Position numbers and translations under genes: made by a program. A stretch of DNA of 32,000 nucleotides from Flavobacteriaceae bacterium (GTDB lineage: Bacteria > Bacteroidota > Bacteroidia > Flavobacteriales > Flavobacteriaceae): the NCBI GenBank assembly GCA_965224465.1, contig OZ245049.1:1020001-1052000 (forward strand). Reading direction: 5' to 3'. Positions 1 to 22,850 of this stretch are shown in pieces; positions within the stretch are counted from its first letter, which is position 1, and every line of letters starts with the position of its first letter. The notes below the pieces were generated by a model. The model ran no database searches. It was not told the DNA's origin and was given only the letters and a program-made list of their open reading frames with translations.

Positions 1-118
1 CTAAGAATAGTAGCGGATTTCAAGGTACGAACCTTTCAATTTATCACTAAACTTTATTCAAAGATACTCACTTTTAATTTAGCAAAAAAACCGCTATTAT
101 TTTTATACATTGTTAGTC
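1..118. repeat. Short inter-cassette element S0 (attC-like imperfect inverted repeat), cut by the window edge
   Basis: Arms 1-16 (ctaagaatagtagcgg) and 91-106 (ccgctattatttttat) are complementary apart from two G:T positions. There is an internal hairpin at 22-35 (aaggt-acga-acctt). The architecture matches element S1 at 4851-5050. GTTAG at 112-116 overlaps the RT stop codon. Confidence 0.5.
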
Positions 119-1999
119 ATTCGCCTTATTTTTATTCCGTTCTAATACTTGATAATAGTAACTAAAAGGTTTGTCATAAAATATGATTTGTTTTTTTCTT
201 TCTATGTCGTCTTCATCATCATCTTCCTTTTCTTTTTCAAGATTTTTGACAGACTTTAACAAGTCGTAATATAATTTACTACGATTCCTATCTAACTGTT
301 TAATTTGTAATATTGAATCTTTATTTAGACTTAATTCCTTAAAACCATTTTTCCAACACATATCTGTTGAAACTTCTTCAAAATTGTTTAACCCAATTCT
401 TCCAACTGACATTCCAATTAATCTATTTATTGCAGATTCAATAACATATCCTTTGAATTTTCTTTGTCCAAGTTCGATTGCTTTTTCAATTTCATTTACT
501 ATCTTTTTCTGCTTTTTAAGTTCTTTTTCTAATGAATTTTTTCTAACACGAATGTTTCCTTTATGATGAATTTCATATCCAACAAAACTAATCCAAGGAA
601 AGCCATTATTATGGATTGAATCCCATTTATATGCTCCTTTTGATTTAGTGTGCCAAAATGGTTTAATTGTAAATTCGGTTTTACTTATCTTCTCTGTTAA
701 TTCATATACAAACTTATGTGGAACTAATTTCAACTCTTTTAAACAGTTTTTGTAAATGTTTTTTGCTTTTTCACATATTTTTTTATCCTTATGTATTATT
801 AGCATATCATCACAAAATCGAATATAAAAGACTTCTGTTTTTAACAATTCTTTATCAGCCTCATTTAGTACAATGTTTGCAATTAATCCCGATAAAGCAC
901 CACCTTGTGGCACTCCAATTCTTTCTTCCTCAATGTTTGAATAGTATTTTAATTCTATTAATCGATTCTTAATCCAACCAAACTCGCCATTTGGTATTTT
1001 ATAACTATCCCAATATTTAGTATTATTTGATAATGGAATATTTATATTAAAAGCATAACAGTTTAAATATTCATTAAAAATATGTTTCACAATTTTGAAA
1101 TCAAAATCTGGATTATCTTCTTTTGATTTATCTATTAAATTGTTAAATAGTTTTTTTACGATTTTATGATTAACTGAATCGTAAAATTTTTCCATATCAC
1201 ATTCAACAACAAACAATGGTTCATAGTTGTTTTTCTTTTGTAATTCAATAACGTTTTTTATACAATCGTGATGTGAAATCGTAGATGTTCCTTCCTTATT
1301 TTTTTTTGAACGAAAAGCGTATGAAGAATCTTGAAAATATCCATCAAATAAATTAGTTAGAAATTTATTTGATATACTTAAAATAATTCTTTCTTTCAAT
1401 GAAAACATTGAAATAGGGCGACATTTATTAGTTTCAGTTTTAGAAATTAATTCCTCCTTTAGTTTTGGGAAAACAAGAGGCCTTTTTATATTAAAATCAT
1501 CATTTTCAATTGCTGATTGAATATTTTTTACAAACTTATCAAGTTCTATAAGCCAATTTACTTTAGGGTCTTTTTTTCGATAAAGTTTTATTGTTTTTAA
1601 TATTGAATAAAAATTTTTATCATTTGAAGTTAATTTTTCAGTTCCATCTCTATTCATTCTTGATTTGCAACCAAGTTTTACCCATTTTTTTCGTGGTGGA
1701 AGAATTTTACTTAATTGATTGTTTAACTCAAATTGATATTTTGAAAATTCATTTTCATCAACTATTTTTTGTTCTTTGAGATGGTAATTATATTTATCAG
1801 AATCAGTTAAAAGATGAATTAGGTGTTTTTTATTTCGAGTTTTAGCAATTTTAACACGTAATTTACAAATGTGAGTTACAATTGCTCTTTCTGTAAAATA
1901 TGTAGAAAATTCTTTCATAATATAAAATAAGAAAAAGGGTTCCTGTAAAGTGCTTACGCACATATTGACAAAGATACTGACATATAAATGTCGAGCCAT
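113..1999 (-). CDS. Reverse transcriptase (RNA-directed DNA polymerase), family not assignable by eye (group-II-like, retron or UG/Abi type)
   Basis: 628-aa ORF with the RT motif series: FVVECDMEKFYDSVNH (motif 3), GVPQGGALSGLIANIVLNEAD (motif 4), YIRFCDDMLII (YxDD-type catalytic motif) and ISFVGYEI (motif 7). It has a long N-terminal extension and an acidic C-terminal tail. An alternative start at 1918 (MKEFSTYF) is possible. Confidence 0.85.
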   Translation of the reverse strand: MARHLYVSIFVNMCVSTLQEPFFLFYIMKEFSTYFTERAIVTHICKLRVKIAKTRNKKHLIHLLTDSDKYNYHLKEQKIVDENEFSKYQFELNNQLSKILPPRKKWVKLGCKSRMNRDGTEKLTSNDKNFYSILKTIKLYRKKDPKVNWLIELDKFVKNIQSAIENDDFNIKRPLVFPKLKEELISKTETNKCRPISMFSLKERIILSISNKFLTNLFDGYFQDSSYAFRSKKNKEGTSTISHHDCIKNVIELQKKNNYEPLFVVECDMEKFYDSVNHKIVKKLFNNLIDKSKEDNPDFDFKIVKHIFNEYLNCYAFNINIPLSNNTKYWDSYKIPNGEFGWIKNRLIELKYYSNIEEERIGVPQGGALSGLIANIVLNEADKELLKTEVFYIRFCDDMLIIHKDKKICEKAKNIYKNCLKELKLVPHKFVYELTEKISKTEFTIKPFWHTKSKGAYKWDSIHNNGFPWISFVGYEIHHKGNIRVRKNSLEKELKKQKKIVNEIEKAIELGQRKFKGYVIESAINRLIGMSVGRIGLNNFEEVSTDMCWKNGFKELSLNKDSILQIKQLDRNRSKLYYDLLKSVKNLEKEKEDDDEDDIERKKQIIFYDKPFSYYYQVLERNKNKAND

Positions 2000-2061
2000 T
2001 TTTTTTAAGTCCTCTGGTAAATGACTAAAAAATACCGTTGAAGAGGATGATACTTACGAGA

Positions 2062-3090
2062 TTAACCCGCCTCAGAACCCTTTTTCTTCTGTTGTTTAGT
2101 TAAATATCCTTTTTCGTTTGCTAAATGTATTATTGAATTAAATTTTATTGAACCATTTCTTGATTCATAACAGTTTTCTAAAAAATTAGCACAATTAGTT
2201 TCATCATACTTCTCTTTATCGATTGCACTAAATCGTTTAAAATAGTTCAATCCAATATCATAGGTGAATGAATTAGAAATAGACATTGCAACCTTGTACC
2301 AATTTTCATACGAAGTTGTTATAGATGAATTTTTACGTTCTAAAAACTTAATTATTGCACCTATTGTTTTTCTATCACTTTGATTGTTCCTATTTAGTGG
2401 GTTAAGTAGCGAATCTTTGCTACTAACACTTTTTACTTTTATTGTTTTTTCTTTTTTTTCAGTATTCAGTACTAATAGGTCAGATTCTGAAATTTCAAAT
2501 GATTGATAATTTTCTTTTAAAATCAATTCATTATCATAAGAAAAAAAACACAAACGTGTTGTATCGCTTCCACTTTTGTCTAATTCAATATCATAATTAC
2601 TCTTAAAATAGTCAGAAAGTTTTTTGAAAGCACTTCTGTGTGCTAAATCAAGATTCTCATTATTTAGTTCAAATTTATATTGAATAGAAATCAACCCTTT
2701 TATTCCTTTATTAGATGGCGATTTCCAAAAAGTAAAAATTAAAGGGTCTTTATCTAAAAAGCACCAAACTTTTTTTAATTCCTCATTTTCAAGTTTGTCA
2801 ATGTCAATTACAATAATTGAATTATATTTTTTTAATTGTTCTTTTCTTCTTTTGTTTTCGAATGTTGCACAAAATGTTATTGCTGGTAATTTTACTTTTT
2901 GTTTGTCGTATTCGGCTTTATTTCCGTTTTTAAGATGAGTTCTTAAATTCTCAATTTTTGATTTATATATATCAGATTTTATTAGTCTTAAAGATTCTTG
3001 AATTGTAATCTCTTTCGATAATGTTGCCCAAGTGTTTTCTTGATACGATACGTTATATTTTAATATTTTTTTTATTGAATTCAAGAGCAT
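2062..3090 (-). CDS. AEP-superfamily primase-like protein (BT4734/VirE_N-like N-terminus plus PriCT-like C-terminus)
   Basis: 342-aa ORF lying 62 nt upstream of the RT on the same strand. It has an IIVIDIDKL acidic DxD-type motif preceded by LPAITFCATF, as in BT4734-like primase N-domains. The C-terminal WYKVAMSISNSF...GLNYFKRFS...YDETNCANFLENCY resembles PriCT. Recognised by motif only. Confidence 0.5.
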   Translation of the reverse strand: MLLNSIKKILKYNVSYQENTWATLSKEITIQESLRLIKSDIYKSKIENLRTHLKNGNKAEYDKQKVKLPAITFCATFENKRRKEQLKKYNSIIVIDIDKLENEELKKVWCFLDKDPLIFTFWKSPSNKGIKGLISIQYKFELNNENLDLAHRSAFKKLSDYFKSNYDIELDKSGSDTTRLCFFSYDNELILKENYQSFEISESDLLVLNTEKKEKTIKVKSVSSKDSLLNPLNRNNQSDRKTIGAIIKFLERKNSSITTSYENWYKVAMSISNSFTYDIGLNYFKRFSAIDKEKYDETNCANFLENCYESRNGSIKFNSIIHLANEKGYLTKQQKKKGSEAG

Positions 3091-3120
3091 TTTTTTTAGA
3101 GTATCGTTTTTGGGTGATGG

Positions 3121-3812
3121 CTAACACCTCTATATCCACAATAGCAACCCTAAAGTTGACGTTATTTCCGCAATACCTACAAGCACTACAGAGGCTGTTA
3201 AATTTATAGTTTAAAGGTAGTTAATAATTTAAATCACCAGTATATAACTGGCGTATTTATTAACAAAAATTTACTGTAAAGTGTTACATGCATACTTTGT
3301 AGTATTTGCAGTACTTGTAGGGGTTTAATTGGTGCTAATTCCTTAGGGAACGGTGTGTTTTTTAGCTGTATGATTTATTTTAACAGTATTATCACTTCTA
3401 AAAACAGGAATACTGGGTGTATTTTACGCTTAAAAAGTCTTCGTATTCAAACAATCGTTTTAACCGTTTAAAACGGTTATTTTAAGGACAAGAATAAAAA
3501 TTAAGTCTTCTTTTTAAAAAAAATATTGCCGTCAGGTACTAATAACAGAATAAAAAAACAAACATAGCCACGTAAAGGGAAACGCATGCCAAAACACTAC
3601 TGACCAACACTTATCCGTATCAAAAAAACAGTAAAAACATATTCCACAAAAGAGCGTGAGAGCAAATAACCTAAAAACAGGTGGTATCTATTAAGGTCTT
3701 TGTCTATAGCCTCTTAATTAATTGCACGTAATCCCGACAGAAACAGGTTTTGAACCGGTGTAGTCAACAGGATGTTCATGCTGGGCGCTACGCACCGCAC
3801 GAACACTTAGTT
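3121..3812. repeat. Inter-cassette module A (variant: conserved L part 3121-3171, unique insert 3172-3535, conserved R part 3536-3812)
   Basis: The ends align with modules B-E: ctaacacc..gttgacgttatttccg on the left, and gtactaata...cacgaacacttagtt on the right. The middle has no counterpart in the other copies. Confidence 0.85.
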
Positions 3813-3824
3813 ATTGCCAAAACG

Positions 3825-4844
3825 TTACTTATTTTGTTTAACACCTTTAACATATTCTATTCGTTTAATCACAGTTCCGTTTGCATTATATTCTTTCCAA
3901 ATCCCCTCTTTTTTCATTTTGTTTTTTTCTCCCGAATAATATAGTTTACCTGTGTTATCGTAATATTTAAAATAGTAACTATCTCTACTCTCATTGTAAT
4001 TAACAACTTCTTGCAATGTTCCGTTAGTTCTAAAAAGGGTATATTTTGTACGTTTTTCATTTTTAATAAAGAATTCAAGTTTAGACATTGATTTAGTCTC
4101 GGAGAAGTAGTGTTTCCACTGATTAGCCATTTCTCCATTTAAATATTCTCCTGTTTTTTTAATATTCCCATTGGAAAAATAACTTACCCATATTCCATTT
4201 TTCTCATTATTCAAATAAACACCAGCACTTGATAGCTTTCCATTTTCATGATAATACGCACATTTTCCATGTTTTCTACCTTTCGAATACTTAATTTTCA
4301 TTTGCAGTGTGCCATCAGAATATTCAAATATCCATACTCCTTCACGATAATTCTCTTTATTTATTCCTTTATAAAAAAAAGAACCGCTTTGATGATAACT
4401 TATATTGACCCCGTGACAAACTCCAGATTTAAAATTTTCAACACCTCTAATCTCGCCATTTTCTCTAAAATCCTTCCATTCTCCGTGTTTTTTTCCTTTT
4501 TTGTAGTTCCCTATAGAACTTAAGTAATTTCCAAAATAATATATTTTCCATTCTCCATCTTTTAGATCATTAGCATAGTTCCCTTCACTTTCTTTTTTCC
4601 CTGTATTTCGTTTATAATAAATCCAATGACCCTTCCTTCTTCCATTGGAGTAATTCCCTTCTTTAATTTTATTCCCAGTATCTTGGTTAAAATAAACCCA
4701 ATGACCTTCTTTATTCCCATTGGAATAAACACCCTTATTTTCAATTATTTCGGACACTTCAATTGATTCAATTTCTTCTTGGGAAAAGGAATTAATTGAA
4801 AACAAGAAAATAATAATATTTGTAATTAAGTTAATTTTTTTCAT
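3825..4844 (-). CDS. Secreted MORN-repeat-variant (YwqK-like) protein
   Basis: N-terminal signal peptide MKKINLITNIIIFLFSINSFSQ, followed by repeated G.W..YY.NG......G.Y.NG...G.W units typical of the MORN variant / YwqK antitoxin-like family. Confidence 0.7.
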   Translation of the reverse strand: MKKINLITNIIIFLFSINSFSQEEIESIEVSEIIENKGVYSNGNKEGHWVYFNQDTGNKIKEGNYSNGRRKGHWIYYKRNTGKKESEGNYANDLKDGEWKIYYFGNYLSSIGNYKKGKKHGEWKDFRENGEIRGVENFKSGVCHGVNISYHQSGSFFYKGINKENYREGVWIFEYSDGTLQMKIKYSKGRKHGKCAYYHENGKLSSAGVYLNNEKNGIWVSYFSNGNIKKTGEYLNGEMANQWKHYFSETKSMSKLEFFIKNEKRTKYTLFRTNGTLQEVVNYNESRDSYYFKYYDNTGKLYYSGEKNKMKKEGIWKEYNANGTVIKRIEYVKGVKQNK

Positions 4845-4850
4845 AATGTT

Positions 4851-5050
4851 GCCAACGTTTGGCTAAGCGCAGTGCGAATTAGGAAGTACGGACTTTCAAG
4901 TTTGCAATTAGCTAAATCTTTTTATTTTGTTTTATCTTTTTTTCCTAAAACCAAATCAAAGGGTTTACCTTCGATGAGACTTCGTGTTGAAGGTCTTTGT
5001 TAAAAATACTGAATTTTTAATTAAGCATCAAACCCGCATTGCGTTTAGTT
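4851..5050. repeat. Short inter-cassette element S1 (attC-like imperfect inverted repeat)
   Basis: Arms 4863-4876 (ctaagcgcagtgcg) and 5035-5048 (cgcattgcgtttag) match at 12 of 14 positions, and both mismatches are G:T on the plus strand. Internal hairpin at 4884-4895 (aagt-acgg-actt). A small perfect hairpin gccaa-cgt-ttggc sits at 4851-4863. The element fills the whole gap between ORFs 5069..5779 and 3825..4844. Confidence 0.6.
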
Positions 5051-5068
5051 GCTGTCGTAGCCAGTGCT

Positions 5069-5779
5069 TTATTTTTCATAGTAATAAGTACGTGTCAAAT
5101 TGTAACTAACTATTCTATTATTTTCTTTTCCCCATTTCGCAAAGTCAGAATGACTCGATTTTTTCCATTCGACATAGTTTTCTACAATTTCCAAATCTTC
5201 ATTCAACACTTTCGTCCAATGTTCTTTTCGATTGGTGTCAATCAATTTGGAAATTTGTTCCTTAATTTTTTTAGCAAGTTTTAAATCGTCTGTCGCATTT
5301 CCAATGTATTCTTCTGGTAGGTGATGAATAGAGTAATAAATATTGAAAGTCCACCAGTTTAAAATTGTTTCTCTTGCTAAATCATCTTTAGGATTTAATT
5401 CAATTGACTTAAATAGGTGTTCTTCGCTTCTGTAATATTTTCCGAACCAAAGAAACGGTCGATTGTCAATTATCTCAATCTCACACCAATTTTCTAAAGT
5501 CGGTTTTATCAATCTATCACTAAGTGGTTGAGGAAATGGTCCATAACCTGCTTCTTGAATATTCTCGAATAAAGGAAAAAGAAATTTAACAAACTCAATT
5601 TTTTGGTCAATTGTCCATTCCTGAGTTGATTTTATAAATTTGTCAAGCTTTTTAAACGCTTGTTTTCTCAGACCTTTCTCTCTATCAAAACAGTAGTCGG
5701 CATAGTATTTCCACTCGGAATTTACCGATGCTGCATTTGCAATAGTCATTAGAGCGATATTTTGGTCTTTAGTAATCAT
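5069..5779 (-). CDS. Hypothetical protein (cassette cargo; possibly immunity-protein-like)
   Basis: 236-aa ORF that fills the cassette between module B and element S1. I recognise no motif in it. Confidence 0.6.
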   Translation of the reverse strand: MITKDQNIALMTIANAASVNSEWKYYADYCFDREKGLRKQAFKKLDKFIKSTQEWTIDQKIEFVKFLFPLFENIQEAGYGPFPQPLSDRLIKPTLENWCEIEIIDNRPFLWFGKYYRSEEHLFKSIELNPKDDLARETILNWWTFNIYYSIHHLPEEYIGNATDDLKLAKKIKEQISKLIDTNRKEHWTKVLNEDLEIVENYVEWKKSSHSDFAKWGKENNRIVSYNLTRTYYYEK

Positions 5780-5796
5780 TTTTTACGCATTGGATA

Positions 5797-6429
5797 CTTC
5801 CCCACGTATATCATCAATAAACTTCTAAAACTTGACGTTATTTCCGTTATGTCTATAATAGTTTCGGGGTATGTGTTGTTTTATTGTTAAAAGTATTCAA
5901 ATTTTTTAAATTTTCAAGCGTTCCACGATTTTTTAATTGTTAATTTCGATGGTCTTGGTGTAAATCTCTGTGATTTTTGTAGAAACAGATCCTAAGCACA
6001 ATTACAATCCAAAATACCCAATATAAATAGTTTAATTCACGTTCTAACGTTGTTAAAAAACAGAACAACTGTAAGATAGAAAAACTCAAAACCGTCTATC
6101 TATTTAGCGGAAGAGGCTCACACCTACTTATTGGTTACAACAACCAATAAAGCATGTACTAATAAGCAAAAAAAATAAACGTAGCCACGTAATGGGAAAC
6201 GCATTCTTAAACCCTGCTGACCAATACTTATCCGTATCTAAAAACGGCGCAAACCAATTCCTACAAAAGAGCGTGAGAGAAAATGATCTAAAAATAGGTG
6301 GTATCTATTAAGGTCTTTGTCGATAGCCTCTTAATTAATTACACGTAATCCCAACAGAAACAGGTTTTGAACTGGTGTAGTCAACAGGATGTTCATGCTG
6401 GGCGCTACGCACCGCACGAACACTTAGTT
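5797..6429. repeat. Inter-cassette module B (~630 bp)
   Basis: Near-identical by eye to 7387-8014, 8911-9540 and 11107-11753. Components: L part with CGTTAT-ttc-CGTTAT (5836-5850), truncated MITE head (about 5998-6066), palindrome 6128-6150, R part 6156-6429 with hairpin 6389-6423. Confidence 0.9.
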
Positions 6430-6454
6430 GTTGTGTGCTGGCTTTTTCTCACTT

Positions 6455-6919
6455 TTATTCATTAAAATAGTTTTCTGGCCATAAATAATCCGGCAAATGG
6501 TTTTTTATCATTTCAACCGCACTATCATACCCTCTTGCTTCTAATTCTCTGACAAAAAATGGCCAAGGTGGAATATTACTATTATAAGAATTTGATGAAG
6601 AGGTTGACATTCCTCCACCTTGTGAAGTAGATAATCCACCATATTGTGAAGTAGAAAGTCCACCATACTGTGAAGTAGATAATCCACCGTATTGTGAAGT
6701 CGAAAGCCCTCCATATTGTGAAGTTGACATTCCTCCATATTGAGAGGTTGACATTCCTCCATATTGTGATGTTGAAAGACCCCCATATTGAGATGTGGAC
6801 ATTCCTCCGTATTGGGAAGTTGACATTCCTCCATATTGCGAAGTAGATAATCCACCTCTTTGGCTTGTACTTAAATTTCTAGGCCAAGTTCTTAAATTTT
6901 TTATTATTGGTCTGCTCAT
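6455..6919 (-). CDS. Low-complexity STSQYGG-repeat protein with a unique C-terminal domain
   Basis: 154-aa ORF with 11 tandem octapeptides [LM]STSQ[YRG]GG, then a non-repetitive C-terminus PPWPFFVRELEARGYDSAVEMIKNHLPDYLWPENYFNE. It lies 12 nt downstream of ORF 6931..7353 in the same cassette. Confidence 0.65.
   Translation of the reverse strand: MSRPIIKNLRTWPRNLSTSQRGGLSTSQYGGMSTSQYGGMSTSQYGGLSTSQYGGMSTSQYGGMSTSQYGGLSTSQYGGLSTSQYGGLSTSQYGGLSTSQGGGMSTSSSNSYNSNIPPWPFFVRELEARGYDSAVEMIKNHLPDYLWPENYFNE
6599..6874 (-). repeat. 24-bp tandem coding repeat (about 11.5 units) inside ORF 6455..6919
   Basis: Period-24 units such as gaagtagataatccaccatattgt, gaagtcgaaagccctccatattgt and gatgtggacattcctccgtattgg differ mainly at codon third positions. 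Confidence 0.9.
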
Positions 6920-6930
6920 AATTATAGTAT

Positions 6931-7353
6931 TTATTCGTAGTTCAGTTTTGTGTTTTCGGTAATATGCAAAATATCAGGTTGGTCGCATTTTACAGCACCT
7001 CTTTTCAACATTCTTTCATAAAATCCATCTGTTAAATCAACTAAAAACACATCAAATTTAAAGTCTAATGATGACAAATAAATAATTGAAATCATATTTT
7101 CCCCAATATTGTAATGTTTTAAATGAAATGGAATGAAGATGTTGGATATATAAATTTGTTCGTTATTTTCATTAATTCCAATTCGTATGAACATTATATT
7201 TTCTCCGTCTGGTTTGTTTTCAATTCCATTTATTTGAATAGTAGAATCATAAAAACTTGATGAAAAACTATAATCAGGATTCAACTTTTGATTTAAGTAT
7301 TTTTCAAGATTATTTATAATAATAATAATAATATCTTCTTTTTTTTCCTCCAT
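6931..7353 (-). CDS. Hypothetical protein (first gene of a two-gene cassette)
   Basis: 140-aa ORF immediately downstream of module C on the cargo strand. No recognisable motif. Confidence 0.55.
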   Translation of the reverse strand: MEEKKEDIIIIIINNLEKYLNQKLNPDYSFSSSFYDSTIQINGIENKPDGENIMFIRIGINENNEQIYISNIFIPFHLKHYNIGENMISIIYLSSLDFKFDVFLVDLTDGFYERMLKRGAVKCDQPDILHITENTKLNYE

Positions 7354-7386
7354 AGTTTAATGTCAGTTCATTTTTTCCGCTTGCAC

Positions 7387-8014
7387 ATAACACCCATATA
7401 TCCTCAATAAACTTCCAAAACTTGACGTTATTTCCGTTATGTCTATAATAGTTATGTGTTGTTTTATTGTTAAAAGTATTCAAATTTTTTAAATTTTCAA
7501 GCGGTACACGATTTATTTATTGTTAATTTCTATGGTCTTGGTGTAAATCTCTGTGGTTTTTGGAGAAACAGATCCTAAGCACAATTACAATCCAAAATAC
7601 CCAATATAAATAGTTTAATTCACGTTCTAACGTTGTTAAAAAACAGAACAACTGTAAGATAGAAAAACTCAAAACCGTCTATCTATTTAGCGGAAGAGAC
7701 TCACACCTACTTATTGGTTGCAACGAATAAAAGCATGTACTAATAACCGAACAAAAAAAAATAAACGTAGCCACGTAATGGGAAACGCATTCTTAAACCC
7801 TGCTGACCAATACTTATCCGTATCTAAAAACAGTAAAAACATATCCCACAAAAGAGCGTGAGAGAAAATGACCTAAAAATAGGTGGTACCTATTAAGGTC
7901 TTTGTCGATAGCCTCTTAATAAACTTCGCGCAATCCCCATAGTATCATCTTTTGAGCCGGTATAGTCAACACTATGTTCATGCTGGGTGCTACGCACCGC
8001 ACGAACACTTAGTT
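7387..8014. repeat. Inter-cassette module C (~630 bp)
   Basis: Aligns with modules B, D and E. It carries the C/E-type variant block in the R part and lacks the tcggggt heptamer present in the other copies. Hairpin at 7974-8008. Confidence 0.9.
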
Positions 8015-8026
8015 ATTGGCAGTAGT

Positions 8027-8803
8027 TTAGTTTATTGTAAAGCTTTCGTCTCCAAATTCAAATATTGTTTTAATTCCATTCTTCATAAGTTCTCTAGCTA
8101 AATCAAACGATTGTTTGATAGCCTTAGGTTTAAAGGAAAAATAGACTTCTGCACTTCCATAGAAAACAGTTTTTAAAGCAATTAATCCATCTTTGTCAGG
8201 CTTCATAAATTGGTAAGTAAAAACCTCTCTGTTTTCTCCTTTTATTATTTGATTAAGCGCTTTTTCACTATTAAACATTTTCTTTATTATTTTTACCATT
8301 GACACGAAATCCTTGTCCTCATACTCAAGAAAATCCATTATAACTGCAATATCTCCTTCGAAAGTGTTCTTGAATTCATAGTAATATAATCCATAGGCAA
8401 TATGTTCAAAACAGTCTATTAAACGGTCAAAGTTAGGTTGACCAATTGACGCAATTTTGGTTTTGTTATTACTAGATTTAATAGTTTTAAATTCATGATT
8501 TCTTAGTACTTGATCACTAATAAAAGTTTCGCTTTTCCTTTTTAAAGCTCGAGGAATTTTTGTCGTGTGAAGCATCTGTCCGACGAAGTTATTGTTAATT
8601 AGTCCTGCCAAGGAGAACATCAAAAATTCGTCGTCCGATGATTTTTTAGAATTATGTAAATCACAAGATGGGACTTTTATTAACCCTTTTCTAAAATCTA
8701 TACCTTTGATATCTTTTTTCTCAGGAAATAGACATCTTGGGGGAACGTGTTCTTTTGAAACTGCAAGATTGTCACAGGCATAGCATTTAGATTTTTCTTT
8801 CAT
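8027..8803 (-). CDS. Hypothetical protein with an N-terminal HNH-like zinc-finger nuclease motif
   Basis: The N-terminus reads CYACDN-x7-EHVPPRCLF...VPSCDLHNSKKS, a CxxC...H...CxxHN arrangement as in HNH/His-Me finger nucleases. The remaining ~190 aa are unrecognised. Confidence 0.4.
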   Translation of the reverse strand: MKEKSKCYACDNLAVSKEHVPPRCLFPEKKDIKGIDFRKGLIKVPSCDLHNSKKSSDDEFLMFSLAGLINNNFVGQMLHTTKIPRALKRKSETFISDQVLRNHEFKTIKSSNNKTKIASIGQPNFDRLIDCFEHIAYGLYYYEFKNTFEGDIAVIMDFLEYEDKDFVSMVKIIKKMFNSEKALNQIIKGENREVFTYQFMKPDKDGLIALKTVFYGSAEVYFSFKPKAIKQSFDLARELMKNGIKTIFEFGDESFTIN

Positions 8804-8910
8804 CTTTTTTATTGTATTTCGACTAACGTAGATTTTGTTTTTAAAACATCTTCAAAATTCCGTCTGTTAACTCGTGGAGCTAATCAAATTCTGATACGGG
8901 TAATTACTGC

Positions 8911-9540
8911 CAACACCCGTATATCATCAATAATCTCCTAAAACTTGACGTTATTTCCGTTATGTCTATAATAATTTTGGGGTATGTGTTGTTTTATTGT
9001 TAAAAGTATTCAAATTTTTTAAATTTTCAAGCGTTCCACGATTTTTTTATTGTTAATTTCGATGGTCTTGGTGTAAATCTCTGTGATTTTTGTAGAAACA
9101 GATCATAAGCACAATTACAATCCAAAATACCCAATATAAATAGTTTAATTCACGTTCTAACGTTGTTAAAAACAGACCGATTGTTAAATAGGGAAACTCA
9201 AAACAGCCTATCTGTTTAGCGGAAGAGAACCTCCTGCCTATTGGTTGCAACCAATAAAAGCATGTACTAACTAACCGAACAAAAAAATAAACGTAACCAC
9301 GTAATGGGAAACGCATTCTTAAACCCTGCTCACCAATACTTATCCGTATCTAAAAACGGTGCAAACCAATTCCTACAAAAGAGCGTGAGAGCAAACAACC
9401 TAAAAACAGGTGGTATCTATTAAGGTCTTTGTCGATAGCCTCTTAATTAATTACACGCATCCCCATAGTAACAGATTTTGAACCAGTATAGTCAACACTG
9501 TGTTCATGCTGGGCGCTGCGCACCTCACGAACACTTAGTT
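8911..9540. repeat. Inter-cassette module D (~630 bp)
   Basis: Aligns with modules B, C and E. Perfect palindrome tattggttgcaaccaata at 9239-9256. Hairpin at 9500-9534 with changes in the loop, the bulge and the closing pair. Confidence 0.9.
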
Positions 9541-9551
9541 GTTACCACCAA

Positions 9552-11090
9552 TTATTCTTTTTTGAATACTGCTAAATGTTCAAGCATAGATACATTACTA
9601 CCTTTCTTTTTAATTGTTTCAAATATTTTTATTCCACTTGGCAAAGGTTTAAAAAACTCACTTCGATTTGCTTTCAGGCATTTTATAAGTGGAGATTTAA
9701 ATTTTTTCGGAAACGTAATTGTAAAAAGTTCATTGGATTTAATGAAATAAATTAACCAGATTAAGTCATATTGATTGTCTTCAATATTCTTCATTTTCTC
9801 ATTGAATATATTCTCAATTGCATTTTCAATTTTAGTCATTACTGACTTGTTTTTAGAATATTTGTCAACTATTTTTTCAATTATGGCAAGAATTTGAGGG
9901 AATGATTTATATCTGCGTTCTTTCAATAAGAGTAAAAGACTTATTGCTTTCATCAAATTCTTTTCATTAAAATCTAACTTCAAGTTGAAAGTGTTTGAAG
10001 AAAGTTCACTTAAAAATCGGTCAACAACACCAGTTCCTTTATGTTGCTTATCTACTTTTAAAGTTCCTCTCAATGATTTTTCAAATCTATTATAAGAGAT
10101 TTTGTTCTTATAGCGTAATGAAAATTGTTGGTAATCAGCAGTCCACTCTCTGAATAAACCTTCAGGTAATTCACTTACTATTGACTTGTCATCATTTAGT
10201 GACAAATTGAAGTCTTTTAATTTCTTTTGAAGTATTCGTATTATTTTATTTGCGTCTTCTTTTGATTGACAAAGAATTCTATAATCATCTTTAAATCGAA
10301 CTGCTAAAAAATCAATATTTAGTTTATCTATCTCTTTTGAACTTTCTGTATCAACTGCTGTTAAAATTATTTCTGCAATTAAATCCGAAATTGCAGGACC
10401 AATAGGAATTCCATTAGTACAACCATCATTTGCGTATTGTATTAATTTATCCAGTTTTAACCCTAAAAATTTATCGTATGCACTTCTATTTCCACTTGTT
10501 CTAATAACTTTTTTTGTGTGAATTGCCCAAGCAATACTATGCGTGTAAATAGAGGGGTAAAAGTTCTTTATGTCTGTTTTCAGAATGAATTTGTAATTAA
10601 ATGCTTCTGCTACTAAATCATTTTCAGCCATTTCCAAAAACTCATAAATCATTCTTCCTGCTCTTAAATGACCTAATTCTCCTTCATTTTTTTTTGTAAC
10701 TGGAATAGGAAAACTGTAACAATAAATTTTATTTTTTGAGTTAAATAAATGGTCTATTATTAAATCCCATTCGTTCATTAAGTACCAAACTATATCGTGA
10801 TATATTTTTGGTTCAATAATACCAAATGTCCTATCTGTTAACTGTGTCTTAGGAAATGAGACATTTATTAATTCACTTTTTACAACTTCAAATTTCGGAT
10901 TTACTCCCGTAGTATCAACTTCAATGTATGGAGTTGGATTTAAGTCAAATTTTGAGACATTAAATGTTGGAGGAACGATATATTGCTCTGGAAAATAGCC
11001 TTCCTCTAATAACCATTTTGCAACTTTTTCAGTAGGAACACCTTTTAAAAGTTTTTTTGTTTCAAAGAAATGTTTTCTGGGTAGTTGCAT
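9552..11090 (-). CDS. Reverse transcriptase, stand-alone, UG/Abi-like (defence-type) candidate
   Basis: 512-aa ORF with LKTDIKNFYPSIYTHSI (motif 3), NGIPIGPAISDLIAEIIL (motif 4) and AVRFKDDYRILC (xxDD catalytic motif), followed by a ~200-aa helical C-terminal extension. It is not similar to the RT at 113..1999. Confidence 0.8.
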   Translation of the reverse strand: MQLPRKHFFETKKLLKGVPTEKVAKWLLEEGYFPEQYIVPPTFNVSKFDLNPTPYIEVDTTGVNPKFEVVKSELINVSFPKTQLTDRTFGIIEPKIYHDIVWYLMNEWDLIIDHLFNSKNKIYCYSFPIPVTKKNEGELGHLRAGRMIYEFLEMAENDLVAEAFNYKFILKTDIKNFYPSIYTHSIAWAIHTKKVIRTSGNRSAYDKFLGLKLDKLIQYANDGCTNGIPIGPAISDLIAEIILTAVDTESSKEIDKLNIDFLAVRFKDDYRILCQSKEDANKIIRILQKKLKDFNLSLNDDKSIVSELPEGLFREWTADYQQFSLRYKNKISYNRFEKSLRGTLKVDKQHKGTGVVDRFLSELSSNTFNLKLDFNEKNLMKAISLLLLLKERRYKSFPQILAIIEKIVDKYSKNKSVMTKIENAIENIFNEKMKNIEDNQYDLIWLIYFIKSNELFTITFPKKFKSPLIKCLKANRSEFFKPLPSGIKIFETIKKKGSNVSMLEHLAVFKKE

Positions 11091-11106
11091 ATTTTTTCTA
11101 ATTAGT

Positions 11107-11753
11107 GATAACGTTACTGACTATGTATACTCCATATATCATCAATAAACTCCTAAAACTTGGCGTTATTTCCTTTATGTCTATAATAGTTTCGGGGTTT
11201 GTGTTTTTTTATTGTTAAAAGTATTCAAATTTTTTAAATTTTCAAGCGTTCCACGATTTTTTTATTGTTAATTTCGATGGTCTTGGTGTAAATCTCTGTG
11301 ATTTTTGTAGAAACAGATCCTAAGCACAATTACAATCCAAAATACCCAATATAAATAGTTTAATTCACGTTCTAACGTTGTTAAAAAACAGAACGACTGT
11401 AAGACAGGAAAACTCAAAACTGTTTATCTGTTTAGCGGAAGAGGACCTCCTGCCTATTGGTTACAACCAATAAAAGCATGTACTAATAACCGAACAAAAA
11501 AAACGTAGCCACGTAATGGGAAACGCATTCTTAAACCCTGCTGACCAATACTTATCCGTATCTAAAAACGGCACAAACCAATTCCTACGAAAGAGCGTGA
11601 GAGCAAATGACCTAAAAACAGGTAGTATTTATTAAGTTCTTTGTCTATAGCCTCTTAATTAATTACACGCAATCCCCATAGTATCATCTTTTGAGCCGGT
11701 ATAGTCAACACTATGTTCATGCTGGGCGCTACGCACCGCACGAACACTTAGTT
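11107..11753. repeat. Inter-cassette module E (~630 bp)
   Basis: Aligns with modules B-D. The conserved core starts about 11128, and gataac at 11107-11112 is a possible junction. Hairpin at 11713-11747. Confidence 0.9.
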
Positions 11754-11765
11754 ATTGGCAACTGG

Positions 11766-12338
11766 CTATTTTTCACAATTTCTAATTATTGATTTCATCT
11801 TTTTCTCTAACATTTTCCATTCGTTAGAATCCCAATCTTTTAATTTTAAATTATCAAAATATTTTTCTACAGCAGTTTTTAAATCATCTCTAAAATGATT
11901 AGCATCAATAATTTTTTCAGCACGATATAGTTTCCTTTTTTTATCTCTTCTGATTTTCCAACCTCCAGATGTTTCTCCTTGGTGTAAAATACCACATCTA
12001 ATATTTTTATAAAACTCAGTTGGAGTATCATTTCCAGTAAATTCTGAAAACTCAGAAACTCTATTGAAAAATTTGCAAAAAGTATCTGACCCATTTGGAG
12101 TTTTATTCCAGCCACGATAAAAGGATTCAAAAGTTTCAATTAGCAGACAACAATTCGCTAAAATATTAAACCCACTTTTATTTTCTTTTTGTTCTCCTGG
12201 TAAAATATACCTTTGAATTAATCTTCGTTTAATTGATTCGGCTATCTCAACTTTATCAGACTCATTTCTGCTATCAATATTTTTCAGATAGTTACTGATT
12301 CTATATTCTGGGTTTTGGGCTAAAATTAAATCATTCAT
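11766..12338 (-). CDS. Hypothetical protein with an Rx4H (HEPN-like) motif
   Basis: 190-aa ORF, the first cassette of the array. It contains NIRCGILHQGE, which fits the minimal HEPN Rx4-6H pattern. This is weak evidence on its own. Confidence 0.5.
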   Translation of the reverse strand: MNDLILAQNPEYRISNYLKNIDSRNESDKVEIAESIKRRLIQRYILPGEQKENKSGFNILANCCLLIETFESFYRGWNKTPNGSDTFCKFFNRVSEFSEFTGNDTPTEFYKNIRCGILHQGETSGGWKIRRDKKRKLYRAEKIIDANHFRDDLKTAVEKYFDNLKLKDWDSNEWKMLEKKMKSIIRNCEK

Positions 12339-12373
12339 TTTATAGAATAGGTTTTTTTGAATCGTGCTTGCTA

Positions 12374-12705
12374 CTAACCCCCATATATCATCAATAAACT
12401 TCCAAAACTTGACGTTATTTCCGTTATGTGGCTATAATAGTTTCGGGGTATATGTTATTTTATTGTTAAAAGTATTCAAAATTTTTAAATTCTCAAGCGG
12501 TCCAACGATTTTTTTATTGTTAATTTCGAAGGTCTTGATGTAAATCTCTGTGGTTTTTGGATAAGCATGGTCTAAAAGAGATAAATAGTTGTGTTTTACA
12601 TTCTAACGTAGTTAAAAAACAGAACGATAACAAAAACTATCCATCAATTTTTTACCTAGCTATAATTCCATTTCTAAACCATCACTTGGAAATGTATTTA
12701 GTATT
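12374..12705. repeat. Truncated module F (L part and middle only) running into a full-length MITE-like copy
   Basis: 12374-12560 aligns with the L and middle parts of modules B-E. The sequence then continues through the complete MITE tail tttctaaaccatcacttggaaatgtatttagtatt (12671-12705) instead of the R part. Confidence 0.8.
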
Positions 12706-12807
12706 GGTACATGCTAGGCAATTTCCAACATCAGTTCCTCAAAAAAACCTACATAGTTAAACAAGTCACAAAAAACGCCCAAGCACCTCCGTTATAAAAA
12801 TATACCT

Positions 12808-12815
12808 TACATTTG
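12808..12815 (+). promoter_or_regulatory. Candidate Bacteroidota -7 box (TAnnTTTG)
   Basis: TACATTTG ends 7 nt upstream of the ATG at 12822, which would imply a leaderless or very short-leader transcript. Confidence 0.35.
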
Positions 12816-12821
12816 TAGCGC

Positions 12822-13310
12822 ATGAAAATTAATAAAATAGCCATATCGCTTTTATTACTCTTTACCTATACTTTTGGGTTTGCACATAGTGTTATTCCAC
12901 ACTTAGAAGGAGGGCATACTAATTTGCATTCTTCAAACAATAAAATTACAATCCAAAGTCATGTACATCATCAGCATACTCCTGATGAAATAAAAGACAG
13001 CAATCACGAGCATTTATCGCATAATAACCACTTTGACACCAATATAACCGACTATGTATTGTGCGTGTTAAAAACGATGGAACACAAGGATGCCAATTGC
13101 AATGTACAGCAATACATTCCTTTTAAACGCTCTGACAAAAACCTTGGAAATTTAAACAAAACGGCTCTTACAGCCTTATTACATATTATTTTTACAGGTA
13201 TTGAACTGCCTATAAAAAGCATCACTCAGTACTCTAATAATGTACTACTATTCAAGACACCACCTTTATTAAATTCTCCAAACAGAGGCCCTCCTACTGC
13301 AACTTGTTAA
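12822..13310 (+). CDS. His-rich secreted small protein (possible metal-binding accessory of the efflux operon)
   Basis: Signal-peptide-like N-terminus MKINKIAISLLLLFTYTFGFA, then many His residues (HSVIPHLEGGH, HVHHQHTPDE, NHEHLSHNNH). It lies directly upstream of the czcA-like gene. Confidence 0.55.
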   Translation: MKINKIAISLLLLFTYTFGFAHSVIPHLEGGHTNLHSSNNKITIQSHVHHQHTPDEIKDSNHEHLSHNNHFDTNITDYVLCVLKTMEHKDANCNVQQYIPFKRSDKNLGNLNKTALTALLHIIFTGIELPIKSITQYSNNVLLFKTPPLLNSPNRGPPTATC

Positions 13311-13408
13311 TATATAAAAACATCTTTATTGATGTAACAATTATTGTTTGTAAAAAATGATCTTCATTTATTTACAGACTATTCTTTCATTTATCAAGTT
13401 AAAAAAAT

Positions 13409-16400
13409 ATGATTAATAAAATAATCTCATTTTCAATACACAACAAGCTTATCATTGGAATTATGATGATTGCTTGGATTGGAGTCGGTATTTTCTCCAT
13501 GAATCAAGTCCCGGTAGATGCCGTTCCAGACATCACCAATAATCAAGTACAAGTAATTACTACCTCTCCTAACTTAGGCACCGAGGACATTGAGCAATTT
13601 GTTACCTACCCTGTAGAATTGGCGATGGCTAATTTACCTGGGGTTACAGAAATTCGTTCTATTTCCCGTTTTGGATTGTCTGTTGTTACGATCGTTTTTG
13701 AAGACGATATGGGCACCTATTTACCCAGACAATTAGTCTCAGAAAAACTAGGAGTCGTAAAAGACCAAATTCCCGAAAAATTCGGAGCTCCTTTTATGGG
13801 ACCTATCAGTACAGGTCTGGGGGAAATATACCAATACACCCTAGATGTAGCACCCGAATTCTCTGAAAAATACACAGATACCGACTTACGAACTTACCAA
13901 GACTGGATTGTAAAACGTCAAATGGCCATGTTAAAAGGCGTGGTAGAAGTAAATAGTTTTGGAGGACGTGTAAAACAATACGAAGTTGCTCTAGACCCCA
14001 ACCGTCTAAAAAGCATGAATGTGACCATTGCTGAAATTTTTACAGCTTTAGAAACAAACAACGAAAATACAGGAGGCGCATATATAGTAAAAAACCACAA
14101 GGCTAATTTTATTCGAGGAGAAGGCTTGGCACGTTCTATTGAAGACATCAATATGATTGTGGTAAAAACGCAAAATCAAGTTCCTATTCTCATAAAAGAT
14201 GTTGCTGAGGTTCGTATCGGAAATGCAGTACGTTTCGGTTCCTTTACAAAAAACGGAAAAGGAGATGCCGTTGGCGGAATGATATTAATGCTCAAGGGCG
14301 AAAATTCTAACGATGTAATTGCACGTGTTAAAGAACGTATTATCAGTATAGAAAAATCATTACCAGAGGGGATCACTATCAAACCATTTATAGACCGTGC
14401 AGATCTAATTGCCAGAACCACCAGTACTGTTCGTAATAATTTACTGGAAGGTGGATTGATTGTGATTTTTGTATTGGTATTATTTTTAGGAAACTTTAGA
14501 GGAGGATTAATCGTAGCATCTACCATCCCTCTCTCCCTCCTATTTGCCTATATAATGATGAATATATTTGGCGTTTGGTCTAATTTAATGAGTCTTGGAG
14601 CTATTGATTTTGGGATTATAGTAGACGGTGCCGTAATTATTGTAGAAAGTATTGTCTTTTACACGGTGATGCATGTACAAAACACAAAAAAGAAAGTCTT
14701 GTCTCAAGATGATTTAGATGCTATTTCTTATAAATCTTCTAGTAAGATGATGAATGCAGCATTTTTCGGACAATTAATCATCCTTATTGTTTTCCTTCCT
14801 ATTCTTACCCTCCAAGGTGTAGAAGGGAAGATGTTTACCCCCATGGCTATGACCTTTAGTTTTGCGGTTATTGGAGCTATGATTTTATGTTTGACCTATG
14901 TTCCCATGGTTGCAGCTTTATTTATGAGTAAAAAACCATCTGAAAAAAAATTATGGGGAGATAAATTCATCATTTGGTTGAGTAAAAAATACCAGCCACT
15001 ATTAATTGCTGCCTTGAACAAAAAGAAACTAATCCTAGGGATATCTGTTGGACTGTTGATCGCAGCATCCATCACTTTTTCATCGATGGGAGGAGAATTT
15101 ATTCCTAAATTAGACGAAGGAGATATTGCCATGCAAGCCTTATTAAAACCAGGAAGTTCCTTAGAAGAAACAGAAAAAGTATCCACATTAATAGAAAGCA
15201 TCATTTTAAAAAACTTCCCAGAAGTTACAGAGGTTTGCTCTAGAATTGGAGTCGCCGAATTACCTACAGACCCAATGCCAATGGACATTGCAGATATGTT
15301 TGTGATGTTAAAACCAATGGACCAGTGGGTATCTGCAAGTAGCAAACCAGCATTGATAGAGAAAATAAAAGAGAAACTAGCTGTAATACCAGGAGTTAAC
15401 TACGAATTCTCGCAACCCTTAGAACTTCGTTTTAATGAATTGATGACGGGAGTACGACAAGATGTAGCCATCAAATTATTTGGAGAAGACTTAGATATAT
15501 TGGCAACTTATGCGGAGAAAATGGCTCAAATTATTGGCAAAGTAGAAGGCGTTGCAGACATGAAAGTGGAGGCCACAAAGGGACTTCCTCAAATGACAGT
15601 AAAATACGAACGCCAAAAACTAGCGCAATACGGATTGAATGTTCAATATTTGAATACCATTATTAGAACAGCTTTTAGTGGTGAAACAGCTGGACTTATT
15701 TTTGAAGGAGAAAAACGTTTTGACTTGGTGGTCCGATTAAAAAAGGAACACAAACAAAGCATGAACGATTTAAAAAACATGTATGTAGATTTACCCAATG
15801 GAAATCAAATCCCAATTAAGGAAGTAGCACAGATAAGTTATGAATCTGGCCCCATGCAAATTTCTAGAGAAGGCACCAACAGAAGAACGTATGTAGGTAT
15901 TAATGTAAGAGGAAGAGATGTAGAATCGGTAGTAAATGAAATTCAAACAGCATTGGATGCTAAATTAGATTTACCTCCGGGATATTACATTAAATACGGT
16001 GGGACTTTCGAAAATTTAGAACGCGCTAAATCAAGATTAGTCATTGTAGTTCCAATCGCTTTGATCCTTATTTTTGTATTGTTGTTTTTCGCCTTAAAAT
16101 CCTTCAGTCAATCCATTATGATTTATGCTGCCATTCCTTTATCGGCTATTGGTGGAGTTTTTGCACTGTGGATGCGAGACATGCCTTTTAGCATCTCGGC
16201 AGGAATTGGATTTATTGTACTCTTTGGAGTAGCCGTTCTCAATGGTTTGGTACTTATTACGAGTATGAACGATTTAAAACAAGAAGGATTGGGCTTAAGA
16301 GAACGTATTATAAAAGGGACAAAAGAGCGTATTAGACCCATATTCTTAACCGCTTCTACAGACATTCTAGGTTTTTTACCCATGGCGATTTCTAGCTCTG

Positions 16401-17830: not shown

Positions 17831-17843
17831 AACATCAGAAATA

Positions 17844-19106: not shown

Positions 19107-19164
19107 AAAACACAAATACACTGTGCTATAAACGCTTATTTTTAAAATGATCAATGCACAAAAA

Positions 19165-19198
19165 CACCTCCAAATTTCATGAAATTGGAGGTGTTTTT
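19165..19198 (+). terminator. Rho-independent terminator
   Basis: cacctccaa-tttcatgaaa-ttggaggtg hairpin followed by ttttt, downstream of czcB. Confidence 0.75.
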
Positions 19199-19262
19199 AT
19201 GTAAACACAAAAATACGATCTACTTAGATTAAAAAATCATAGTTCCACCTTAGAATAATCCT

Positions 19263-19270
19263 TACTTTTG
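19263..19270 (+). promoter_or_regulatory. Candidate -7 box (TAnnTTTG)
   Basis: TACTTTTG lies 34 nt upstream of the ATG at 19304. Confidence 0.4.
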
Positions 19271-19303
19271 CCATTCATAATTACCTATTAAACATTCATC
19301 AAT

Positions 19304-20032: not shown

Positions 20033-20057
20033 TCACTTTCCTTTTTACATATTATAG

Positions 20058-20088
20058 AACCTCTGACTTTTTTGTTGGAGGTTTTTTT
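20058..20088 (+). terminator. Rho-independent terminator
   Basis: aacctc...gaggtt hairpin followed by a T run, just after the stop at 20032. Confidence 0.6.
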
Positions 20089-22848: not shown

Positions 22849-22850
22849 TA

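Follow-up and report, generated by a model that had tools for sequence, protein, structure and literature searches.

Complementary cassette ends point to a tyrosine-recombinase-associated, integron-like gene array in a Flavobacteriaceae chromosome

The window studied here is a stretch of 32,000 nucleotides (nt) from a Flavobacteriaceae bacterium (assembly GCA_965224465.1, contig OZ245049.1, positions 1,020,001 to 1,052,000), and its positions 1-12821 are very probably part of a chromosomal cassette array associated with a tyrosine recombinase, of the rAID-1-like kind and following integron-like rules. This assignment is made because the two ends of each cassette are complementary to each other and the same junction grammar occurs in a genuine rAID-type array, and because that grammar is also found beside a homologous recombinase in Flavobacteriales, where one of the window's cassettes is found again with a matching 5′ junction. 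An integron- or rAID-like character had been proposed in an original prediction from AAC and GTT junction motifs, and the matched ends, the rAID-type grammar and the recombinase-linked relatives now support it.

The array holds nine main open reading frames (ORFs), all on the minus strand between 113 and 12338, which are grouped into seven cassettes of one or two genes by conserved non-coding DNA. Mapping of the modules bore out the predicted one-directional order, the seven cassettes and the positions of the repeats; the prediction had placed its ten cargo ORFs on the correct strand but had counted one too many. The spacers comprise five long modules of approximately 630-690 nt (A-E), one head module without a trailer (F) and two short modules. 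Read on the cargo (minus) strand, a long module extends from the start of a trailer (T), AACTAAGTGTTCGTG, to the end of a leader (L), ...GATATATGGGTGTTA. Modules B-E show a mutual identity of 90-93% over ~630 nt, the homology of module A to the others is confined to its first ~290 nt (86-89%) and last ~50 nt, and that of module F is its last ~250 nt (81%). Modules A-F are non-coding, as every reading frame of all six contains 6-23 stop codons. The GC content is 28.2% on average for the cargo ORFs, 34-35% for the modules and 33.8% for the rest of the window; the czc genes have 36.2%, so that the cargo is more AT-rich than the czc operon, as had been remarked. Since the short module at 1-112 is cut by the window edge, the array must extend leftwards beyond position 1. 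Window positions 12822-32000 contain neither a trailer nor a leader copy.

Near-identical upstream sequences in tandem might point instead to a tandemly duplicated gene family with ordinary conserved 5′ untranslated regions (UTRs), an alternative already named in the original prediction. The cargo ORFs are, however, unrelated to one another, except for a 70-amino-acid (aa) match in the reverse transcriptase (RT) domain between RT_UG39 and RT_UG14, and conservation ends sharply 10-110 nt ahead of the cargo start codons. A gene family is refuted by the unrelated cargo proteins and is left with next to no probability.

Each cassette starts right after GTTR and ends at or before YAAC, and the 5-10 bases inside these two boxes are complementary to each other. 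Examples are GTTGGCAGTAATT ... AACTACTGCCAA (cassette 3), GTTATCACTAATTA ... TAATTGGTGGTAAC (cassette 2) and TGTTATGTGC ... GCACACAACA (cassette 4). For the seven cassettes of the window, with conserved parts left out, 3 of 5040 permutations reached the observed own-end pairing score. For 23 cassettes from six arrays, with mechanically cut flanks, none of 100,000 permutations did so, and for 16 curated junctions the own mean was ~8.4 against 4.65 ± 1.29 for non-own pairs (0 of 200,000 permutations). The two flanks of one module paired no better than background, and complementarity was absent between the ends of neighbouring cassettes. In integrons the start of a cassette pairs with the inverse core of its own attC site, since the crossover splits the site (G|TT). 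The complementarity of own-cassette ends seen here is this R′/R″ signature of integrons. An attempt to choose the strand from G-T wobbles in the end pairings, made by eye, was uninformative, with mismatches on both sides.

The same grammar was seen in Parabacteroides distasonis NZ_OY725747, obtained from a tblastn search of plasmid records, where an integrase gene heads a row of co-oriented orphan immunity genes (Tdi1 and SMI1/KNR4). This architecture matches published rAID-1 arrays (Ross et al., bioRxiv 10.1101/471110; 10.1101/2025.05.03.651265). The spacers are 56-143 nt long and read X′+TAAC | AA-hairpin-AACC-ATTA | X, and the cassette ends include TTACCGAT, TTACCAAC and TTAGTAATC. Perfectly matched ends of 8-9 nt were found mechanically, within a 40-nt test window, for five of the six cassettes; the sixth has an 11-nt match outside that test window, which was spotted by eye. 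The identity permutation alone (1/720) reaches the own score. Complementarity starts at TTA and the base before it is unmatched, and the crossover position would therefore be as in integrons.

A link with a recombinase was provided by cassette 7 of the window (113-3121, minus strand), which consists of a VirE-PriCT2 primase-like gene (2062-3090; PADLOC RTasVirE-PriCT2, E 4e-128) and RT_UG39 (113-1999; PADLOC E 5e-201). UG39 RTs are specifically linked to VirE and PriCT-2 (PMC9226505). The 5′ junction of the cassette is GTTA|GCCATCACC at ~3125-3113, and its 3′ end, GAATGACTAAC at ~121-111, overlaps the stop codon. Among contigs longer than 20 kb, the closest homologue of this RT (85% identical) is on a contig of 459 kb (L009; related loci are numbered with L), where a VirE-PriCT2 and RT_UG39 cassette lies directly downstream of a co-oriented tyrosine recombinase of 381 aa. 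The junction is ...AACGTTA|GCCATCATC in L009 and ...GGTGTTA|GCCATCACC in the window. A third copy of the cassette, in L011, lies between short modules, and L009 and L011 have the same 5′ junction, GTTAGCCATCATC. Downstream in L009 seven more co-oriented gene products are encoded, including AAA_15, RelA_SpoT and OLD-TOPRIM with UvrD, and several of these genes are in cassettes with matched ends. Recombinases followed by cassettes with GTTG ... CAAC ends were also found in Aquimarina rubra (L014) and Putridiphycobacter roseus (L015), whose contigs end soon after, and a Chryseobacterium plasmid (L017, NZ_CP041688) has the same recombinase-then-cassettes arrangement.

The recombinase of these relatives is an Xer/IntI-like protein of 370-385 aa, encoded just upstream of the cassettes and co-oriented with them. 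More than 7000 homologues were found at E < 1e-30, and the named ones among the best 120 are almost all from Flavobacteriales. The protein passes the NCBIfam model NF040815 ('site-specific tyrosine recombinase/integron integrase'; 228 bits, cut-off 220) and falls under the cut-off of the integron-integrase model TIGR02249 (202 bits, cut-off 265). The IntI insertion is missing (24 aa in place of the 67 of VchIntIA), and IntI is not the associated family. The recombinase shares 48% identity over 275 aa with the integrase of the P. distasonis rAID-type array (E 2e-80), just below the identity of more than 50% that the rAID-1 authors describe as restricted to rAID-1.

In each of the three Flavobacteriales heads examined, a divergent gene immediately upstream of the recombinase encodes a small Cys-rich protein (114-125 aa, N-terminal CxxC...CSxxC, no Pfam match): L009 7155-7520, L014 9493-9870 and L015 9471-9815, each on the minus strand, with 57% and 38% identity between loci. 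It may be an accessory factor of the recombinase. In the interior of the L017 array are an IS110-family transposase and a group II intron RT (13263-14264, 15729-17045). These insertions recall IS1111-attC elements and group IIC-attC introns, which target the attC sites of integrons.

When recombinase proteins were used as tblastn queries, matches were obtained in modules B-F on the cargo strand. The best preserved copy is that in module F (tblastn E 3e-5, matched by 119 of 120 queries), which reads LLDHAYPKTTEIYIKTFEINNKKIVGPLE against LLGHSSSKTTEIYAQVATNNLQSIKNPLD in an intact protein. A profile hidden Markov model (HMM) of the last 75 residues of 120 homologues was compared with the six-frame translation of the window and with a reversed decoy. 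The five best matches were modules F, C, E, B and D, at homologous positions and with 13.4-8.1 bits (best decoy 1.5 bits); module F was the top match in the window (13.4 bits, i-E 0.0024). The remnant covers the last ~30 codons of the recombinase gene, and the -7-like box AAAATTTG is located inside it. In module F the frame of the remnant runs to a TAG at ~12435, closing ~10 nt before ATAACGGAAATAACG; intact recombinase genes stop just before ATAATGGAAATA... or TGGGAATAAAC..., and the sequence then continues to GTTR. The leader resembles the region right after intact recombinase genes (ATAAYGGAAATA ... GTTR), and module F is alignable with the attI-like regions of L009 and L014. The leader is therefore the attI-like region of an array head. 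Module A gave no recombinase remnant by tblastn or six-frame profile search. None was found by profile HMM in the modules of the NORP167 array and of metagenome contigs described below; in L006 tblastn gave an unconfirmed, weak hint. A remnant of the small Cys-rich gene that precedes the recombinase genes was rejected, since its matches, in modules B and C at E ~1, were unconvincing.

The repeat had been described as composite and far longer than attC, and five parts can indeed be distinguished in a long module. They are a ~50-nt AAC...GTT hairpin like a compact rAID-1 spacer, a trailer of ~190 nt ending in a T-run, a copy of a genome-wide dispersed element, the 3′ remnant of the recombinase gene with its -7 box, and the attI-like leader. 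The long module is a compact hairpin site joined to a decayed copy of an array head and not one giant site; a single giant attC was ruled out because the modules lack head-to-tail complementarity. The idea of another crossover, at the GTTG that follows the T hairpin, was also rejected; it would make the rest of the module a cassette without an ORF, but the own-end complementarity expected in that case was above chance in none of six modules. The first 50 nt of the trailer are laid out as AAC-TAAG-TGTTCGTGC-GGTGC-GTA-GCGCC-CA-GCATGAACA-TAGT-GTT, and their consensus fold is a hairpin closed by AAC/GTT; the remaining ~190 nt of the trailer end in the T-run.

All modules lie on the minus strand. 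Module A (3812-3122) has its T hairpin at 3812-3763, a trailer reaching to the T-run (~3552), a middle part of its own and L at 3171-3122. In module B (6429-5797) these are followed more fully: T hairpin 6429-6380, T-run 6190-6168, dispersed element ~6066-5999, recombinase remnant 5998-5921, -7-like box 5905-5898 and L 5847-5797. Module C (8014-7388) has the T hairpin at 8014-7965, the dispersed element at 7649-7582, the remnant at 7581-7507, the box at 7488-7481 and L at 7437-7388. The corresponding positions in module D (9540-8911) are 9540-9491 for the hairpin, up to 9112 for the dispersed element, 9099-9025 for the remnant, 9018-9011 for the box and 8960-8911 for L. Module E (11753 to ~11109) contains a T hairpin (11753-11704), T-run (11514-11493), dispersed element (11394-11327), remnant (11326-11240), box (11233-11226) and a degenerate L (~11175-11126) with 13 extra nt. 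Module F, the array head (~12705-12375), has no trailer and consists of the dispersed element (~12700-12595), the remnant (12581-12486), the box (12484-12477) and the attI-like L (12424-12375).

The near-consensus -7 box AAAATTTG is conserved in modules B-F, ~105 nt upstream of the end of L. It had been claimed that the modules contain no TAnnTTTG box: the exact box is absent from the leader part, as stated, but this near-consensus form had been overlooked. Relatives carry exact TAnnTTTG boxes (TATATTTG, TATTTTTG) ~75-110 nt upstream of the end of L. The modules probably do two jobs, the ends serving as recombination boxes while the interior, with its terminator-like T-run, promoter-like box and 5′ leader, makes each cassette its own transcription unit.

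It could be argued that the modules are only regulatory or structured RNA (3′ UTR, promoter and 5′ UTR), the complementary flanks forming an RNA stem, for example for mRNA processing or stabilising, with no role in DNA exchange. The conserved -7-like box ~105 nt upstream of the leader end and the T-run closing the trailer would fit, as would several G-U pairs in the candidate trailer stems, which can form on the cargo strand only. However, Rfam covariance models gave no match to the modules at the gathering score or at E <= 1, the folding energy is unremarkable (z -1.6 and -1.2) and a compensatory change in any sequence was seen for only 4 of 53 predicted base pairs. Such a role would also leave unexplained the matched ends on unrelated genes, the link to a recombinase in the relatives and the recombinase remnant, and it is considered improbable. 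The related idea of a retron or DRT non-coding RNA is countered by the modules that precede genes other than RTs.

The dispersed intergenic element is ~90-130 nt long and consists of a variable hairpin followed by GTTCTnTTTTTTAACAACGTTAGAACGTAAAATAAACTATTTATAT..TTTTGGATTGTAATTG. Besides its copies inside modules B-F it is free-standing at 20109-20171 (minus), 24132-24198 (minus) and 26359-26428 (plus), with its 3′ end facing the 3′ end of a neighbouring gene at these three sites, and a related copy is present at the syntenic site in NORP167 (L016 9250-9438). The plus strand, which does not encode the cargo, has a nearly perfect promoter consensus of the E. coli type (TTGACG, 16-18 nt, TATAAT) at 5832-5859, 7422-7449, 8945-8972 and 12409-12438. 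Its first hexamer lies within the leader and the remainder just upstream of the leader, pointing back into the module; this consensus differs from that of the housekeeping sigma factors of Bacteroidota.

A rAID-like, integron-like array could have been built as follows. Cassettes would leave as circles and return through a crossover immediately 5′ of TTR, so that the right half of the split recombination site would travel with the cassette, as in integrons (G|TT); the matched cassette ends are the footprint to be expected of such a process. The recombinase gene is gone from the window, and only its last ~30 codons are left, in the head module F and in each of B-E. A copy of the head could have arisen for each cassette either by repeated single-crossover integration of circles carrying the recombinase 3′ end, leader, cassette and trailer, or by duplication of the head in tandem, after which cassettes were exchanged at the boxes. 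Present-day exchange would depend on a recombinase encoded elsewhere or on homologous recombination between the 630-bp direct repeats.

Several observations weigh against this interpretation. As originally noted, no recombinase gene is in view: tblastn found none in the 32-kb window, and both arrays with long T/L modules, that of the window and that of NORP167, begin without one. The scores of the remnant are modest (8-13 bits) and its five copies are not mutually independent. Because certain end sequences are found again on cassettes unrelated to each other, the complementarity is in part the product of a small set of box variants. Unlike true attC sites, the long modules show no head-to-tail complementarity beyond TAAC/GTTA, and the leader does not fold. 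The putative promoter and terminator roles, finally, are drawn from consensus matches only.

The absence of a recombinase gene at either T/L-type array head is also what is expected of a fossil array that owes its assembly and its shuffling to ordinary homologous recombination, no site-specific step being active at present. Units of one cassette each (recombinase 3′ end, attI-like leader, cassette and trailer) would integrate Campbell-style by way of their homologous part, which would duplicate the 3′ segment of the recombinase gene each time, and the 630-bp direct repeats would let RecA excise, delete or exchange what lies between them, for instance following natural transformation. A recombinase remnant and an attI-like leader before cassettes 1-5 are as expected from single-crossover circles carrying only the 3′ part of the gene. 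The trailers are mosaic among the modules, A and B differing from C and E in columns 34-100, and A and C from B, D and E in columns 200-215, and homologous exchange or gene conversion among the modules must therefore have taken place. Homologous recombination between homogeneous attC sites is reported to shuffle cassettes in chromosomal integrons (PMC12614218). This explanation nevertheless leaves unexplained the own-cassette complementarity at GTTR/YAAC, and the occurrence elsewhere of the same cassette with an identical 5′ junction between quite different spacers. These two observations imply a site-specific step, at least in the past, and homologous recombination acting without one is possible but unlikely. 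One mechanism does not exclude the other.

Among 185,579 species genomes the leader pattern matched in one array only, that of the Flavobacteriaceae metagenome-assembled genome (MAG) NORP167 (L001). The trailer (83% over ~230 nt) is shared with this array, as is the leader, all 50 nt of which are identical to module F; the middle part is unrelated. A scan of metagenomes gave five true short contigs, each with a 270-nt module ending in the same leader; two other matches (L003, L008) were rejected as chance matches within a phage gene. Module E (searched as 11091-11770) had no match in plasmid and phage collections, and the trailer and leader patterns had none in viral contigs. NORP167 is also the closest relative (CzcA 88% identical), and the location of the array is not conserved in it. 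Synteny begins at window position 12755; leftward, NORP167 has a Y1 transposase and REP-like repeats and no array, and its own array adjoins a metallophosphoesterase. At the position of the window's array (L016 1038-1900, NVRM01000029) a Y1_Tnp (IS200/RAYT-like) gene is followed by tandem REP-like repeats (GTTATTGGTATGTCACCACGCTGTG).

With a Y1 transposase and REP-like repeats in the corresponding place of NORP167, the module might itself be mobile, a non-autonomous element (MITE/REP/PATE-like or targeting cassette sites) that invaded the spacers of a defence island of the usual kind. Its middle part does include a dispersed element that is also found at 20.1, 24.1 and 26.4 kb, a hairpin follows right after the TAAC at the module start, as at IS200/IS605 left ends, and the 90-93% identity of modules B-E fits a recent spread. 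Yet within the window every trailer and leader copy belongs to the array, the only match among the species genomes is another array, and all copies have one orientation and one position relative to the genes. The 3′ end of the module has no hairpin or inverted repeat, the complementarity joins the flanks of the gene and not those of the module, and the leader and junction boxes are common to arrays with other spacers. A mobile module is thus highly improbable.

The likeness to rAID-1 extends beyond the junction grammar (X′+TAAC | site | RTTR+X, with own-cassette complementarity). The genes are co-oriented and AT-rich (nine ORFs, mean GC 28.2%; for rAID-1 at least two co-directional genes and less than 41%), the intergenic motifs are conserved and repetitive, a tyrosine recombinase with 48% identity to that of the P. 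distasonis array is encoded upstream of the cassettes, and in their orientation, in relatives of the array, and the MORN_2/YwqK-like gene of the window fits immunity-type cargo. The array differs in its host, a marine member of the Flavobacteriaceae and not of the Bacteroidales, and in its cargo, which is mainly candidate anti-phage genes (RT_UG14, RT_UG39 with VirE-PriCT2) of up to 600 codons and not short orphan immunity genes. Its spacers, at 224 and 630-690 nt against 56-143 nt, bear promoter-like boxes and a recombinase-gene remnant, and its head has no recombinase, whereas in rAID-1 a predicted XerD-family recombinase is directly upstream. Grammar and recombinase family are in common with rAID-1; the host group, the cargo and the large spacers bearing promoter-like boxes and fossils set the array apart.

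With sedentary chromosomal integrons, such as the Vibrio superintegron with VCR repeats, the array shares one-directional order, homogeneous array-specific repeats between unrelated genes, AAC/GTT boxes, a cassette 5′ end complementary to the start of its own downstream site and a hairpin-type site. Integrons also carry defence genes as cargo (10.1101/2024.07.02.601686), as does this array. However, the recombinase of the relatives lacks the IntI insertion and is co-oriented with the cassettes, not divergent; the complementary boxes are 9-14 nt and not 7; and the spacers are 4-10 times the length of attC sites (57-141-bp imperfect palindromes) and not palindromic overall. The modules also appear to have promoter-like boxes of their own, in place of a single Pc. 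In the orphan-module arrays of Rhs and contact-dependent inhibition (CDI) systems, displaced units keep a fragment of the conserved upstream gene. The recombinase 3′ end kept before cassettes 1-5 is similar and suggests growth at the head, displacing older units; here the fragment comes from a recombinase gene and not from a toxin gene, and the cassette boundaries are of a site-specific type.

Canonical integrons are reported to be rare in Bacteroidetes (PMC9024848), and the biogenesis of rAIDs has been described as unresolved (10.1101/2025.05.03.651265). A search of a paper library found no paper on integron-like or orphan-immunity recombinase arrays in Flavobacteriia, and no title or abstract listed in broader searches on cassette arrays, defence and recombinases described one. 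The matched ends in a genuine rAID-type array and in Flavobacteriales relatives offer a concrete candidate mechanism for the building of rAIDs, namely an integron-like crossover directly 5′ of TTR by a recombinase without the domain thought essential for integron function. They also extend rAID-like arrays beyond gut Bacteroidales and toxin immunity to marine Flavobacteriaceae and candidate anti-phage RTs, and add an array context for the RT_UG39 and VirE-PriCT2 pair, for which earlier evidence of a role in defence had been inconclusive. The growth and decay of such arrays are recorded in the 630-bp modules with their recombinase remnants, and these modules also explain why short-read assemblies break at such loci. 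It is suggested, as a tentative generalisation, that Bacteroidota might possess a second, IntI-independent class of integron-type gene capture, with an Xer-like recombinase and a split-site R|TTR logic. rAID-1 would be its gut branch and marine Flavobacteriia would use it as a store of anti-phage genes; the window would represent a derived state in which each cassette has its own decayed head (recombinase 3′ end, promoter and attI-like site), is self-expressing and can be reshuffled by homologous recombination alone, without the recombinase.

The other cassettes, all on the minus strand, were annotated by Pfam, PADLOC and NCBIfam profile searches, in which four cargo ORFs had no family. Cassette 1 (11754-12374) encodes an orphan of 190 aa (11766-12338) and has the ends GTTAGTAGCAA / TTGCCAATAAC. 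Cassette 2 (9541-11112) holds RT_UG14 (9552-11090, PADLOC E 1e-216); with RT_UG39 this agrees with the prediction of two different RTs. A 258-aa orphan (8027-8803) is found in cassette 3 (8015-8910), the end sequences of which (GTTGGCAGTAATT / AACTACTGCCAAT) also flank an unrelated gene beside the recombinase of P. roseus. Cassette 4 (6455-7387) encodes a 140-aa orphan (6931-7353) and a 154-aa ALTTAQ-repeat protein (6455-6919); within the latter ORF, at 6576-6887, ~13 tandem 24-nt units encode GG(L/M)STSQY repeats (Pfam ALTTAQ_rpt). Cassette 5 (5069-5779), with the ends GTATCCAATGC / GCACTGGCTAC, encodes an orphan of 236 aa with no Pfam, PADLOC or NCBIfam match. Cassette 6 (3825-4844) has complementary ends, GCCAAACGTT / AACGTTTTGGC, and encodes a YwqK-like protein of the immunity-protein type with MORN_2 repeats (Pfam MORN_2, 2.6e-13) and an N-terminal signal-like segment, in line with the secreted MORN/YwqK-like protein predicted. 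The labels 'HNH-like' and 'Rx4H' given to other cargo found no support in the profile searches.

The short stem elements of the original prediction proved to be no oddities but the ordinary spacer type of this array family (type 2), shared with relatives and also present in recombinase-linked and other related arrays. The complete one (4845-5068, minus) runs from CAAC|TAAACGCAATGCGGG to CGCACTGCGCTTAGCCAAACGTTG and forms a branched fold that is closed by the terminal inverted repeat (single-stranded DNA fold z -2.5, closing stem CTAAGCGCAGTGCG/CGCATTGCGTTTAG), and homologous modules occur in L001, L002 and L004. The incomplete one (1-112, minus), downstream of RT_UG39, has the -7 box TATCTTTG at 66-59, is 83% identical to L001:4123-4226 and aligns with type-2 modules of L002, L004, L009 and L011. 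An exact TATCTTTG box is also found in the spacer between the VirE and RT genes of cassette 7, at 1976-1969, and is kept in L009, L011 and L013. Judged from homologues of 599-600 aa, the true start of RT_UG39 is probably the ATG at 1918 (M28). A further VirE-PriCT2 and RT_UG39 pair lies in a one-directional defence array without long modules (L010, Logan SRR31655989, 16.8 kb), which also encodes a DEAD/UvrD helicase, an OGG-family protein, a Type ISP/MmeI-like enzyme and AbiEi/AbiEii.

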